NCBI GenBank assembly: GCA_963675515.1 | Contig: OY776328.1 | Location: forward strand, 1,500,001 to 1,532,000 | DNA length: 32,000 nt | From: Coprobacillaceae bacterium | Lineage (GTDB): Bacteria; Bacillota_I; Bacilli_A; Erysipelotrichales; Coprobacillaceae | Direction: 5' to 3' | Shown: positions 19,575 through 28,522 of the stretch, piece by piece | How positions within the stretch are numbered: position 1 is the first letter of the stretch | Layout of the letters: every line of letters starts with the position of its first letter | The notes under the pieces: model-generated | The model's input: the letters and a program-made list of their open reading frames with translations, nothing else | Told to the model about the DNA's origin: nothing | The model's database searches: none | Made by a program: the position numbers and the translations under genes

Positions 19575-21482
19575 ATGTTAAATGAACGACAGCAACAAAT
19601 AATTGATATTCTTAATAGCGGCAATGACTGGATCAACGGTAGCGATATTGCCAGGCTTCTTAGTGTCTCGAGCCGGACCATCAGGCTAGACATCAATGCG
19701 ATTAATGAATTTTACAATCAGGCTTTGATCAGGTCCGATCGGCGCAAAGGTTATAGTATCGATTTGGAATTGACAAATCTGGTTGCCCCCTGCAGTGACA
19801 ATTGCTTGCCCCAGACTGCCCAACAAAGATGTGTCTATATTATCAAGGAACTCCTTTTTGAAAATGAAGAGTTGAGTCTGATTGCCCTGGAACAGGAGCT
19901 TTTTGTAAGTGAATTTACTTTGAATAACGACCTGAAGCGAATTCGCAAAATTATTGCCTGCTATCCCGAACTCAAACTGGTCCGACATCAAAACAGGATC
20001 AAGCTCCAAGGTGACGAGGGGGTCAAACGCTCCTTATACAAGATGCTTTTGACTCAAGAAACGAACGGTGATTTTATCAATCTCAACTCCATCGCCAGAC
20101 TTTGGAACAATTTCGATCTGATGGAAATAAAAGAGGAACTTGAGAAGGTGCTTGTCCGTAATGACTACCAAATCCCCGACCTCAACTTTCCGATGATCAT
20201 GATTCACGCCGGCATAGCGATTGAACGGATCTACAACCGCAACTATGTAAACGGACATGCTGATTCCAATTTCTTGCGGGATAGCCCGGAGTATCTTGTT
20301 TCCAGTGAATTTTTCCAAAGTGTCGGCGATATTGTAAACATCGAGGTTGTCGAAGATGAAGTGATTTTGTTTGCGATGTTGCTGCTAGGTAAGAAACGGA
20401 GCAATTATCGCGATGATATCGTTGCTTTGCGACTGGATATTTCCTCTCAAGAGTTGGTCGACCGGCTCCTGGATGTCATTGATGAAAAGTTCGGAGTCGA
20501 CTTCAAGTCCGATGAAAACCTGAAGATTGGCTTGGCGATGCATTTGCAATCAATGCTTGAAAGGCAGGAAAAAAATATTCCTGTCACTAATGTCTATCTG
20601 CAGGAAATAAAAAGAAAATATCCCCTGATATTCGAAATGGCGATCAAGACCGGCGAGGTGCTCAACTCATTTTGCCATCAAGAAATAAGCGAGAATGAAT
20701 TCGCTTTTCTGGCATTGCATCTTGGAACGGCATATGATCGGACAAACTCGACAATGAAACACCGGGCTGTGATGATTATCCCCCACAACCAGACCTTGGC
20801 AAAGATGGCAATCGATAAGATCAGGGTCCATTTTGGTGAAAGGCTCCAACTCGTCAATATCTTTGGCTATTTCGAGGAATCGATGGTATGTAAGGAAAAC
20901 CCGGATTTGATCATCACAACAACATCGTTGCAACATAATCTGGCCACTGCGACAATCAAAGTGTCAATGTTCATAAACCATGAAGATGAAAGCCGGATCT
21001 TCCAGGAATTGAACATATTGGACCGCAAGCGATATCATCAGGAGTTTGTCACCTTGATCAAGGAACTGGTCCGGCCGGAACTGTTTTACGTAGTAGACCA
21101 AATCGAAGATGCAAGTACCGTTATCGAGTATCTTTGCGACGGCCTTATCGCAAGCAACCTGGCCGACAGTGCCTACAAGGAAGATGTATTCAAGCGGGAA
21201 GCGATTTCCGCGACATCATTTGTTCATGGCTTTGCGGTGCCCCATGCGATTGAAATCCCGGCAATTCATTCATCGATATCCATCATGTTTATAAAAAATC
21301 CCATCAAGTGGGGCGAATTCGAAGTTCGCCTGGTCATTCTTCTGGCCATCAATGATTCGGACAACCATCTGCTCAAGATATTTTTCGAATGGCTTGGAAG
21401 CATTGTCTCGAACCCGGTCATGATGGCAAAGCTGCTGGATTGTGCCGATTATCAGGAGTTTATCGATTTAGTTACCAACTAG
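19575..21482 (+). CDS. PRD-domain transcriptional activator of the LicR/MtlR type (HTH-PRD-PRD-EIIB-like-EIIA-like).
   Basis: N-terminal HTH (NERQQQIIDILNSGNDWINGSDIARLLSVSSRTIRLDI). PRD histidines (LAMHLQSMLER, LALHLGTAY). C-terminal EIIA(Mtl/Ntr)-like region (GFAVPHAIE). The start is ambiguous among 19566, 19569 and 19575. I chose 19575 because it is 9 nt from AGGAG. Confidence 0.85.
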   Translation: MLNERQQQIIDILNSGNDWINGSDIARLLSVSSRTIRLDINAINEFYNQALIRSDRRKGYSIDLELTNLVAPCSDNCLPQTAQQRCVYIIKELLFENEELSLIALEQELFVSEFTLNNDLKRIRKIIACYPELKLVRHQNRIKLQGDEGVKRSLYKMLLTQETNGDFINLNSIARLWNNFDLMEIKEELEKVLVRNDYQIPDLNFPMIMIHAGIAIERIYNRNYVNGHADSNFLRDSPEYLVSSEFFQSVGDIVNIEVVEDEVILFAMLLLGKKRSNYRDDIVALRLDISSQELVDRLLDVIDEKFGVDFKSDENLKIGLAMHLQSMLERQEKNIPVTNVYLQEIKRKYPLIFEMAIKTGEVLNSFCHQEISENEFAFLALHLGTAYDRTNSTMKHRAVMIIPHNQTLAKMAIDKIRVHFGERLQLVNIFGYFEESMVCKENPDLIITTTSLQHNLATATIKVSMFINHEDESRIFQELNILDRKRYHQEFVTLIKELVRPELFYVVDQIEDASTVIEYLCDGLIASNLADSAYKEDVFKREAISATSFVHGFAVPHAIEIPAIHSSISIMFIKNPIKWGEFEVRLVILLAINDSDNHLLKIFFEWLGSIVSNPVMMAKLLDCADYQEFIDLVTN

Positions 21483-21490
21483 GAGAATAT

Positions 21491-22057
21491 ATGGAAAATA
21501 AAATAAATAAAGCAACATACAAAAATGATCTGGGTGTCATATCGAAACGCTTTGTCGGTTATCTGATTGACTGGTATGTGGGAGCACTGGTTACCGCCTT
21601 GCCACTGGCGGTATTCTCTCAGAAATATTATGGAAACATGTCAAACCAGAACATCCTGCACTTCGACCAGTCGCTTGGAGTCGTTTTGGGAGTTGTCACC
21701 ATTCTGTTTGCCATATTCTATTACATCCTGGTGCCGCTGTTCATATATCCGGGTCAGACTCCGGGTAAAAGAATATGCAAATTGAAAATTGTTTCTAAAA
21801 ACGGTAAGGCGGTTAAACCGATCAACCTGGTAAGCCGCCAGCTGCTGGGGATATTCATTATCGAGGGCTCTTTGTACAGTGTCTCCACCATTTTCCATCA
21901 GTTGCTTTCGATTGTTTTTTCAATGAATTTCGTCACCCCGTTGATGTATGCGGGCATTATCGTATCGCTGGCAAGCGCATTGTTCTTGCTGTTTGGCAAG
22001 AACCAAAGAGCCTTGCACGACCTTGTCGGTCAAACAAGAGTAATATCAAGCAAGTAG
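21491..22057 (+). CDS. RDD-family integral membrane protein.
   Basis: SD AGGAG plus ATG 21491. Motifs KRFVGYLIDWYVG ... GKRICKLKIV ... RALHDLVGQTRV, with 3-4 TM helices. The ORF-track start 21389 overlaps the regulator. Confidence 0.8.
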   Translation: MENKINKATYKNDLGVISKRFVGYLIDWYVGALVTALPLAVFSQKYYGNMSNQNILHFDQSLGVVLGVVTILFAIFYYILVPLFIYPGQTPGKRICKLKIVSKNGKAVKPINLVSRQLLGIFIIEGSLYSVSTIFHQLLSIVFSMNFVTPLMYAGIIVSLASALFLLFGKNQRALHDLVGQTRVISSK

Positions 22058-26926: not shown

Positions 26927-27659
26927 GATTGAGATTTGTTGCGGCAGTTATGAAGACGCGTTAAACGCGGCCAAAGGAAAAGCCAGAAGGATCGAACTCA
27001 ACAGCGCTTTGCATCTAGGCGGGCTGACCCCGTCATTGGCGACCTTGATTCTGGCCCGGAAGAATACGGATCTGAAAATTATCGCCATGGTTCGCCCTCG
27101 GGGTGCCGGATTCAATTATGATGAATCGGAGTTTCAGGTGATGCTCGAAGATGCCAGGTTGCTGCTAAAAAACGGGGCTGATGGCATCGCCTTTGGCTTT
27201 TTGGACGGATCTCGAAATATAGATTTACAAAAGACCGCTCAGATGGCTGATTTGATCCATCTGTATTCAAAAGAAGCGGTGTTCCACCGGGCGTTCGATT
27301 GCGTCATCGACCCATATGTGGCAATTGAACAGCTTATCGATCTGGGCATCGACCGGATCCTTACCAGCGGCCAGCAGGACACCGCAATCAAGGGCGCTTC
27401 ACTGATCCGGGACCTGCAGGAAAAATACGGCGACCAGATAGAAATCCTTGCAGGAAGCGGCGTCAATGATTCGAACGCCTTGGATCTGATCAGTCAAACC
27501 AAAATAAACCAGATCCACAGTTCCTGCAAGGGTTGGAAAGAAGATAAGACGACAACCACTGACAATATCAGTTTTGCCTATAATGGTGAAAAAGGGGATA
27601 ATTATGAAGTGGTCCTGGCTGATAAGGTAGCAAGGCTGATTGCCAGTGTATGTCAATAA
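26916..27659 (+). CDS. cutC: CutC-family protein (TIM-barrel, annotated 'copper homeostasis').
   Basis: [40 protein letters not shown] has a CutC-like N-terminus. The gene overlaps the M20 gene by 11 nt. Confidence 0.85.
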   Translation: [247 protein letters not shown]

Positions 27660-28522
27660 CATGGAAGAACAATCGCCGCTTCAAATTTGGATATACCCTC
27701 TTTAGTGTGGTTGTGGCCGCCTATCTGCAGGCTTTTGTCATCAAGTCATTCATCACTCCGGCCGACCTGCTTTCCAGCGGATTTACCGGATTGGCGATAT
27801 TGATCAATAGGATTGCAGGTCTTTTTGGATTGGGTTTTCCAGTATCGATAGGAATGATTGTGCTAAACGCCCCGGTAGCTTTTTTATGTTACAAAAACAT
27901 ATCAAAAAAATTCACCATCTTCTCATTGGTCCAGGTATTTTTAGCCAGCCTATTTTTGCAGTTTTTGGATTTTCCGGTTGTTTTCGATGACGTGATGCTC
28001 AACATCACTTTTGGGGGATTCATATATGGGATTTTGACGGTGATTGCCCTTAAGGGCAACGCATCGACCGGCGGTACCGACTTTATCGCGTTGTATATCT
28101 CAAACAAATGCAACAAGTCAATATGGGGTTACGTTTTTGTTTTCAATTCGATAATCCTGATCGTATTTGGGTACATGTTCGGGTGGCTTAATGCCGGCTA
28201 TTCGATCTTGTTCCAGTTTATCTCGACCAAAACCATCGATTCATTCTATCACCGGTACAAGCGGGTCACTTTGCAGATAACCACAACCAGACCTGAACGA
28301 ATCATCGATGCTTATACAGGAAGTTACCGTCATGGGGTTTCCTGGGTCAAGGGGGTGGGGGGCTACAGCAAAAAAGAGATGAGCCTGCTCCATACTGTTG
28401 TTTCGAGCTATGAGGTATCCGACATTGTCGAATTGATGAGGACAGTTGACCCGAAGGTCATAATCAATGTGTTGAAGACCGAAAATTTTTATGGCGGTTT
28501 TTACCAGGCCCCTATCGAATGA
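27650..28522 (+). CDS. YitT-family membrane protein with a C-terminal DUF2179 domain.
   Basis: Multiple TM helices plus GGTDFIALYIS, and a C-terminal soluble domain (RVTLQITTTRPERIIDAY...VIINVLKTENFYGGFY). It overlaps cutC by 10 nt. Confidence 0.85.
   Translation: MSITWKNNRRFKFGYTLFSVVVAAYLQAFVIKSFITPADLLSSGFTGLAILINRIAGLFGLGFPVSIGMIVLNAPVAFLCYKNISKKFTIFSLVQVFLASLFLQFLDFPVVFDDVMLNITFGGFIYGILTVIALKGNASTGGTDFIALYISNKCNKSIWGYVFVFNSIILIVFGYMFGWLNAGYSILFQFISTKTIDSFYHRYKRVTLQITTTRPERIIDAYTGSYRHGVSWVKGVGGYSKKEMSLLHTVVSSYEVSDIVELMRTVDPKVIINVLKTENFYGGFYQAPIE

Follow-up and report, generated by a model that had tools for sequence, protein, structure and literature searches.

A predicted ega-type locus for GlcNAc-Asn utilisation in a Coprobacillaceae bacterium, expanded by further conserved genes including cutC

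The degradation of N-glycoproteins universally leaves N-acetylglucosaminyl-asparagine (GlcNAc-Asn) as its last fragment. A pathway for its use that depends on the phosphotransferase system (PTS) was reportedly shown in Enterococcus faecalis in 2023/24 by Combret et al. (Res Microbiol 175:104169), where ega is said to be the enterococcal glycosylasparaginase locus and the title reportedly ties GlcNAc-Asn use by E. faecalis to infection. A related arrangement is described here for a window of 32,000 nucleotides (assembly GCA_963675515.1, contig OY776328.1, positions 1,500,001 to 1,532,000 of the forward strand) from a Coprobacillaceae bacterium, in which ten co-directional genes on the + strand at 19575-28522 probably form an ega-type GlcNAc-Asn utilisation system, a reading to which a probability of about 0.8 was assigned. 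Positions given without further qualification are those of the window.

According to PMC11549559, the E. faecalis ega locus comprises EgaG, enzymes IIB and IIC (EIIB and EIIC) of a lactose/cellobiose-family (Lac/Cel) PTS and a GrdB-like gene; it also has a dipeptidase and a GntR regulator, which have a separate promoter of their own. The same paper gives the GrdB-like gene as a pseudogene in E. faecalis OG1RF, and it is therefore presumably dispensable there. In PMC11976118, CelA1 is named as the enzyme IIA (EIIA) of 'the GlcNAc-L-Asn PTS' and E. faecalis is stated to grow on free GlcNAc-L-Asn by means of this PTS, which is homologous to that of the window. A second system, the alf-2 cluster of Lacticaseibacillus casei BL23 (Becerra et al., 2020; PMC6960285), resembles the window locus in that it combines a glycosylasparaginase, AsnA2 (gene asnA2), and an M20 peptidase of the PepV type (gene pepV) for the use of a GlcNAc-Asn-type glyco-amino acid, a pairing which the first-pass annotation of this DNA had named correctly. 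It differs in that uptake proceeds through the major facilitator superfamily permease AlfH without phosphorylation, in that a fucosidase (AlfC) and a kinase (SugK) are needed, and in that the cluster has AsdA and a GntR regulator and contains no PTS, CutC, GrdB-like, RDD or YitT genes (PMC6960285).

For the comparison with ega, an ega-type locus on a megaplasmid of E. raffinosus was used as a genus-level stand-in for E. faecalis. In this locus the genes for a GntR regulator of the LSA1692 subfamily and a Sapep dipeptidase are followed by those for the asparaginase, EIIB, EIIC and EIIA, with the EIIA gene in the place where the GrdB-like gene would be. The window proteins were found to be 58% (asparaginase), 56% (EIIC), 49% (EIIB) and 40-42% (M20) identical to their E. 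raffinosus counterparts. The genome of the window organism encodes at least 14 Lac/Cel EIIC paralogues. Searching it with the E. raffinosus EIIC gave the window EIIC at 56% identity against 39% for the next-best paralogue, and searching with EIIB gave the window EIIB at 49% against 40% for the next, which argues that the window transporter corresponds specifically to that of ega and is not just any cellobiose-type PTS. The earlier proposal of PTS uptake and phosphorylation of a GlcNAc-Asn-type substrate, followed by the action of a cytoplasmic glycosylasparaginase, is supported by these results, as such a route was reportedly shown for ega of E. faecalis and the window proteins are counterparts of those of the E. 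raffinosus locus. A locus of Latilactobacillus curvatus with the order asparaginase-GntR-GrdB-like-EIIC-Sapep was also found. Asparaginase, EIIC, GrdB-like protein and M20 peptidase thus recur as a set in Lactobacillaceae and in Clostridia.

The window locus and ega have in common the Lac/Cel EIIB and EIIC, a cytoplasmic glycosylasparaginase, an M20 peptidase of the PepV/Sapep family and a GrdB-like gene. They differ in their regulators, the window having a LicR-type activator with a PTS regulation domain (PRD) where ega has a GntR repressor (EgaR). No GntR repressor was found at the window locus, the best GntR matches in the genome lying elsewhere. With LicR in place of GntR, the two systems therefore share their catabolic core but not their mode of regulation. 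The window locus also has an EIIA of its own, whereas E. faecalis borrows CelA1; its PTS genes come first, whereas the asparaginase gene comes first in ega; it adds RDD, CutC and YitT genes, which do not figure among the genes listed for ega; and its M20 peptidase has a short lid with Ser in the place of Arg350, whereas the Enterococcus (E. raffinosus) enzyme is full length and has Arg. The window locus is therefore most fittingly classed with ega, as an expanded form of it. The idea of the pathway is already known from E. faecalis, and what is new are the extra conserved genes, above all that for CutC.

Judged by its sequence, the window hydrolase belongs to the glycosylasparaginases and not to the isoaspartyl peptidases. 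Its best match in the PDB was the glycosylasparaginase of Flavobacterium (186 bits, E 9e-54), whereas isoaspartyl peptidases and plant-type asparaginases scored 117 bits or less. Conserved in the asparaginase alignment are the sugar-stacking Trp11, the nucleophile Thr152 (HDTVGM; GHDTVGM), Arg180/Asp183 (GRVGDSP) and Thr203-Gly204 (ATGLGE). The Trp11 of the Flavobacterium enzyme is kept within a TWRMA motif, and its Phe13 corresponds to Met in the window enzyme. No signal peptide was found in the window protein, whose N-terminus (MWAIIATWRM) begins right at the mature domain, and the enzyme is therefore cytoplasmic. It is encoded by a single-copy gene in the 2.88-Mb genome, and relatives with 75-78% identity carry the NCBI name N4-(beta-N-acetylglucosaminyl)-L-asparaginase. 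However, its sole NCBIfam match was to beta-aspartyl-peptidase PRK10226, at 119 bits and so far under the cut-off of 567. The protein could on that account be an isoaspartyl peptidase/L-asparaginase that salvages beta-aspartyl peptides together with the M20 peptidase, next to the PTS genes by accident and in a separate operon; a hairpin does divide the two blocks of genes, and peptide processing by a pair of M20 peptidase and Ntn hydrolase is conceivable in principle. This alternative is disfavoured and is thought very improbable, since the PDB scores differ in the manner given above and the sugar-stacking Trp is kept, since the hydrolase gene is interleaved with PTS genes in Enterococcus and Latilactobacillus, since the window EIIC corresponds specifically to that of ega, and since about 45 of 80 loci, which come from different families, have the PTS and hydrolase blocks together and equally spaced.

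These loci were obtained by a scan with the asparaginase that took one genome per species and gave 295 relatives, of which the best 80 loci were analysed for gene content by tblastn with all ten window proteins. Enterococcus is absent from these best 80 of the 295 loci. All ten genes were found with equal spacing in approximately 27 of the 80 loci, and the run from the regulator to CutC in approximately 45, with YitT following CutC in only some of the latter. Since the same spacing recurs to this extent in different species, for the ten genes as for the core, the arrangement is not due to chance. The conserved loci span Erysipelotrichaceae/Coprobacillaceae, Clostridium, Lachnospiraceae, Peptacetobacter and Butyricicoccus, with identities to the window proteins of 70-81% (asparaginase), 65-84% (EIIC), 47-61% (M20), 50-62% (CutC) and 52-71% (YitT). 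Cultured bacteria that carry the locus include Faecalibacillus, Clostridium neonatale and Longibaculum muris. The check that had been suggested for the locus, namely co-occurrence of PTS EIIC, asparaginase, M20 and CutC in other genomes, was thereby carried out, and these genes recur together in the approximately 45 loci.

A number of observations were made on other asparaginases. Arg9, which lies beside the Trp in TWRMA, was considered as a marker for a phosphate site in PTS-linked enzymes and was dropped, as five EIIC-adjacent asparaginases have Ser or Thr there. Protein P0014, on an ENA contig of 6096 bases, is a 457-amino-acid call in which a GrdB-like protein (from residue 49) is joined to a glycosylasparaginase; this may be a real fusion, a lost stop codon or an artefact of gene calling. 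Turicibacter sanguinis (L113:7696-10127) encodes a glycosylasparaginase that is 54% identical to that of the window, with TWYFS replacing TWRMA, no PTS nearby and an EamA/DMT transporter gene two genes upstream, while its CutC and nagA genes lie together approximately 1 Mb away.

The window M20 peptidase, which matched its family model in two stretches, keeps the metal ligands of the family (His85, Asp116, Glu150/151, Asp174 and His340). It is without a lid segment of approximately 62 amino acids relative to the Sapep-family enzyme of E. raffinosus and of approximately 100 amino acids relative to PepV, and it has Ser252 at the position of the carboxylate-binding Arg350 of PepV/Sapep, a residue that the E. 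raffinosus enzyme retains. The lid deletion and Ser252 were invariant in all aligned M20 orthologues, which in nearly all loci have a length of 366-375 amino acids. With neither the full lid nor the Arg350 of PepV/Sapep, the protein is a relative of this family and not a typical member. Its AlphaFold 2 model, with a predicted local distance difference test (pLDDT) score of 87, was found to superpose best on Sapep and PepV, with template modelling (TM) scores of 0.85 (query) and 0.69 (target) against 3KI9 (Sapep). It is a reasonable guess that the active site is more open and admits the bulky Asn(GlcNAc-6P) side chain.

The pathway proposed for the locus is as follows. By orthology with the E. 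faecalis PTS, GlcNAc-Asn would be taken up by the Lac/Cel-family EIIC and its sugar phosphorylated through EIIA and EIIB. The Ntn-hydrolase glycosylasparaginase, presumably active on the 6-phospho form, would cut the beta-aspartyl-glucosylamine bond to give L-aspartate and 1-amino-GlcNAc-6-P, and the latter would decay to GlcNAc-6-P and ammonia. NagA and NagB, which are encoded elsewhere in the genome, would convert GlcNAc-6-P to fructose-6-P. Glycosylasparaginases require free alpha-amino and alpha-carboxyl groups, and for this reason the short-lid M20 peptidase probably releases GlcNAc-Asn from short glycopeptides. The LicR-type activator would turn the operon on during PTS transport, following the phosphorylation logic that is usual for PRD and EIIA domains in its family. 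CutC and the GrdB-like protein may act on the side of the sugar or sugar phosphate and the RDD protein as an accessory of EIIC; the roles of these three and of YitT in the pathway are suggested by gene association. The genome has a nagA gene (293 bits) and one nagB-family gene, and the organism can therefore burn GlcNAc-6-P.

Chitobiosyl-Asn had also been named as a possible substrate, and the membership of the EIIC in a family that includes chitobiose transporters would agree with this substrate or with a larger N-glycan core remnant. We consider either highly unlikely and found no support for chitobiosyl-Asn, as the locus is without a glycosidase or phospho-glycosidase for the second GlcNAc and no match to glycoside hydrolase families 18 or 85 (GH18, GH85) was detected in the genome, which has a completeness of 97.7%. 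In addition, the known glycosylasparaginase pathways use the monosaccharide form (PMC6960285), and the E. faecalis substrate is given as GlcNAc-L-Asn in PMC11976118. As GH18 and GH85 matches are missing from the genome, the organism probably relies on its host or on other microbes for the GlcNAc-Asn itself.

To our knowledge the CutC family, which extends from bacteria to humans, has no known biochemical function. The copper phenotype of E. coli cutC has been reassigned to the small RNA MicL, which is encoded inside cutC (PMC4102768), and the 'copper' name is therefore no guide to function. A sample of 399 Bacilli genomes (approximately 400 species) was scanned with the window asparaginase, the Pfam CutC model and the nagA model. 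CutC was found in all 31 asparaginase-bearing genomes and in 69 of the 368 without an asparaginase (Fisher p 4e-21), and nagA in approximately 94 of the 100 CutC-bearing genomes and in 115 of the 299 without CutC (Fisher p 7e-25); these p-values overstate the evidence, since Fisher tests ignore relatedness. CutC lies within 3 kb of the asparaginase gene in 16 of the 31 genomes, and it directly adjoins nagA in several unrelated Bacilli genomes (G278, G046, G160, G270 and G072). It is also retained by many very small, Mollicutes-sized genomes. Relatives of the window CutC in the PDB are 3IWP and 1TWD. Literature searches that paired CutC with glycosylasparaginase or GlcNAc returned nothing relevant.

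In the Bacteroidota, a similar link was seen on the Hymenobacter plasmids NZ_CP010056 and NZ_CP094672, where a glycosylasparaginase gene is followed by that for CutC with a 4-nt overlap (L122:6884-8664 and L123:6884-8622). The neighbours of this pair are GH92, GH18, nagB and ROK kinase genes, that is, an N-glycan context, and through these loci a second phylum shows a link of CutC with the catabolism of N-glycans. They differ from the window locus in having no PTS and in their asparaginase, which is 32% identical to that of the window and carries a Tat-like (twin-arginine translocation) signal peptide, so that it is periplasmic. The Hymenobacter CutC has no signal peptide and is cytoplasmic; since the two proteins need not meet, CutC probably acts on the imported sugar product. 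A second CutC paralogue in the window genome (52% identity; G000:C1:603379-604215) lies among genes for pilin-like (N_methyl), pyridoxal phosphate-enzyme and aminotransferase proteins, and no amino-sugar gene was found beside it.

The alf-2 authors state that 1-amino-GlcNAc cannot be metabolised and undergoes decay at acidic pH alone, and they explain its breakdown by the falling internal pH of lactobacilli (PMC6960285). It may be speculated that bacteria whose cytoplasm is neutral would have use for a cytoplasmic enzyme for the 1-amino-GlcNAc step, with CutC or the GrdB-like protein as candidates. CutC might in that case serve as an enzyme in the catabolism of GlcNAc or GlcNAc-6-P. As candidate reaction, the glycosylamine set free by glycosylasparaginase (1-amino-GlcNAc or its 6-phosphate) would be converted at neutral cytoplasmic pH to GlcNAc(-6-P) and ammonia, a step which is assumed to be spontaneous, with the GrdB-like protein perhaps as a second component. 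This suggestion is a speculation that we think unlikely to prove right in this form.

The GrdB-like protein of the window belongs to the group without selenocysteine (GrdB_like_no_Se). Short GrdB-like proteins above the NF041545 cut-off were found in 15 of the 399 Bacilli genomes, and 13 of these 15 also have the asparaginase (p 2e-14, again a statistic that ignores relatedness). The AlphaFold 2 model of the window protein (pLDDT 96) has a flavodoxin-like alpha/beta fold. A fold search with this model gave only generic flavodoxin-like, CheY-like and Ras-like matches with TM scores of 0.54 or less, and a sequence search of the PDB gave no match. Three features are conserved, namely a DQxQxGxGxK loop that follows strand 1, Cys54, which is invariant, and a PKKGGxGL motif.

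The two exceptions (L134, G203:C37 4225-12154; L135, G392:C1 3013-13942) have no asparaginase match at E<=1e-30. Both retain LicR, EIIA, EIIB, EIIC, the GrdB-like protein and CutC, with RDD in G203 only, and in both an M81/MlrC-like metallopeptidase adjoins CutC, replacing the asparaginase and M20. The G392 locus also encodes a 764-amino-acid transglutaminase-core protein and a lyase of the aspartase/fumarase class. The transglutaminase-core superfamily includes cytoplasmic peptide:N-glycanases. From these variants it would appear that the GrdB-like protein and CutC belong with transport and the sugar side of the system and that the amidase 'head' is exchangeable. The PTS might then import a wider range of substrates than free GlcNAc-Asn, consisting of amino acids with an N-glycosyl group or of short N-glycopeptides (for example, dipeptides or tripeptides of the X-Asn(GlcNAc) kind), with peptidase and asparaginase as exchangeable 'heads' on a shared chassis of transport, CutC and GrdB-like protein. 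The conservation of the M20 peptidase in loci of the window type, with its shortened lid and altered carboxylate-binding residue, points in the same direction. Against this, we know of no Lac/Cel-family PTS that carries peptides, and the variants without a glycosylasparaginase match make up just 2 of the 399 genomes. Transport of glycopeptides was also proposed by the alf-2 authors (PMC6960285), whereas the growth of E. faecalis on free GlcNAc-L-Asn through the homologous PTS, as given in PMC11976118, argues for the smaller substrate. The wider range is thus regarded as possible, although doubtful.

Several points weigh against the reading of the locus as an ega-type system for GlcNAc-Asn. The comparison was made with sequences of E. 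raffinosus and not of E. faecalis itself, the details of ega come through citing papers and not from the primary ega paper, and the function in this organism is read from sequence alone. We infer that the asparaginase would accept the 6-phospho substrate. The M20 peptidase may not be an ordinary dipeptidase, because Arg350 and part of the lid are lost, and its role is uncertain because an L. casei pepV mutant grew undiminished on the glyco-amino acid (PMC6960285). The hairpin between the PTS and catabolic genes could separate two independently regulated units. Finally, the transporter module may serve a wider class of substrates, given the PTS-GrdB-like-CutC variants without a glycosylasparaginase match.

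Of the remaining proteins of the locus, the regulator contains the Pfam domains HTH_11, HTH_Mga, Mga, PRD (residues 301-388) and PTS_EIIA_2 (residues 502-637). It has the domains of a LicR/MtlR-type regulator, with one PRD only above the Pfam thresholds, and homologues with 40-55% identity hold the equivalent position in approximately 50 of the 80 loci. The RDD gene likewise precedes the EIIA/PTS genes in approximately 50 of the 80 loci. The closest paralogue of the window EIIC (39.5% identity; G000:C1:657800-661390) has an RDD gene directly before it, within an operon of the order RpiR-GH1-RDD-EIIC-Mem_trans ... EIIB. Since a second RDD-EIIC pair thus stands in a GH1 operon, RDD would be an accessory of an EIIC subfamily and not specific to GlcNAc-Asn, and from gene association it is probably a partner of EIIC. 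Small accessory proteins exist for other Lac/Cel PTSs (CelGHI; DUF3284/ChbD). YitT is tightly linked to the asparaginase gene, following CutC or preceding the asparaginase in approximately 47 of the 80 loci and also in L117-L119.

The features of the locus are listed in Table 1. The ten genes named by the first-pass annotation were all found on the + strand with the domains it had stated, as confirmed by matches to Pfam and NCBIfam profiles that far exceed the thresholds of the stated families, and three of the start codons were changed (RDD, 21491; EIIB, 22437; asparaginase, 24849). Putative ribosome-binding sites were found as TAGGAG 9 nt 5' of the LicR ATG, TAGGAG before the new RDD start, AAGGAGG before the EIIB ATG and GAGGAG before the asparaginase start. 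The refined EIIB agrees in length with its homologues of 106-107 amino acids, and that of the refined asparaginase is found in nearly all called relatives. The tight junctions described before were also seen, with a gap of 2 nt between asparaginase and M20 and overlaps of 11 nt between M20 and CutC and of 10 nt between CutC and YitT, by which CutC and YitT are translationally coupled to the M20 gene. What had been called a weak terminator corresponds to the hairpin at 24695-24719, which is followed by a poor U tract, UUUAUCUC, and is a putative terminator.

Table 1. Coordinates of the genes and putative terminators of the predicted GlcNAc-Asn locus.
Feature	Position	Strand	Size and supporting values
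Strong intrinsic terminator at the 5' edge of the locus, ending the upstream gene cluster	19020-19065	+	perfect 21-bp stem; dG -39.1 kcal/mol
LicR/MtlR-type PRD-containing transcription activator	19575-21482	+	635 amino acids
RDD-family small membrane protein	21491-22057	+	188 amino acids; PF06271 66.6 bits
PTS EIIA, lactose/cellobiose family	22072-22398	+	108 amino acids; PF02255 97 bits
PTS EIIB, lactose/cellobiose family	22437-22760	+	107 amino acids; PF02302
PTS EIIC, lactose/cellobiose family; predicted GlcNAc-Asn permease	22771-24138	+	455 amino acids; TIGR00410 402.7 bits
GrdB-like protein without selenocysteine	24168-24692	+	174 amino acids; NF041545 223 bits (cut-off 175)
Hairpin between PTS genes and catabolic genes, putative weak or partial terminator	24695-24719	+	dG -15.7 kcal/mol
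Predicted cytoplasmic glycosylasparaginase, N4-(beta-GlcNAc)-L-asparaginase, EgaG-like	24849-25805	+	318 amino acids; PF01112 211 bits
Short-lid PepV/Sapep-family M20 metallopeptidase	25808-26926	+	372 amino acids; TIGR01887 339 bits
CutC-family TIM-barrel protein	26916-27659	+	247 amino acids; PF03932 180 bits
YitT-family membrane protein with DUF2179	27650-28522	+	290 amino acids; PF02588 and PF10035

Downstream of the locus, no intact gene was found in the approximately 1 kb 3' of yitT (28523-29560). A nagB pseudogene at 28523-29498 was considered and is unsupported: no Pfam match was obtained there even at E values up to 5, tblastx gave no match to the nagB of the genome itself or to any compared locus, and PF01182 finds solely the gene at genome position 795119. 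Further downstream and outside the locus, a BglG/LicT-type antiterminator (CAT_RBD and two PRDs) and an EIIBC of the glucose/beta-glucoside family are encoded at 29616-31896.

The presence of the ten-gene form across many families of gut Firmicutes suggests that the scavenging of GlcNAc-Asn stubs is a common gut lifestyle, and the lack of a GH18 or GH85 match in the genome of the window organism points to cross-feeding. The locus also yields testable leads for four protein families, namely CutC, the short GrdB-like proteins, RDD and YitT. Within the Bacilli sample, CutC is present in every glycosylasparaginase-bearing genome and in few that are without nagA, and the short GrdB-like protein is almost confined to genomes with the pathway, while RDD seems to act together with certain EIIC permeases of the PTS.

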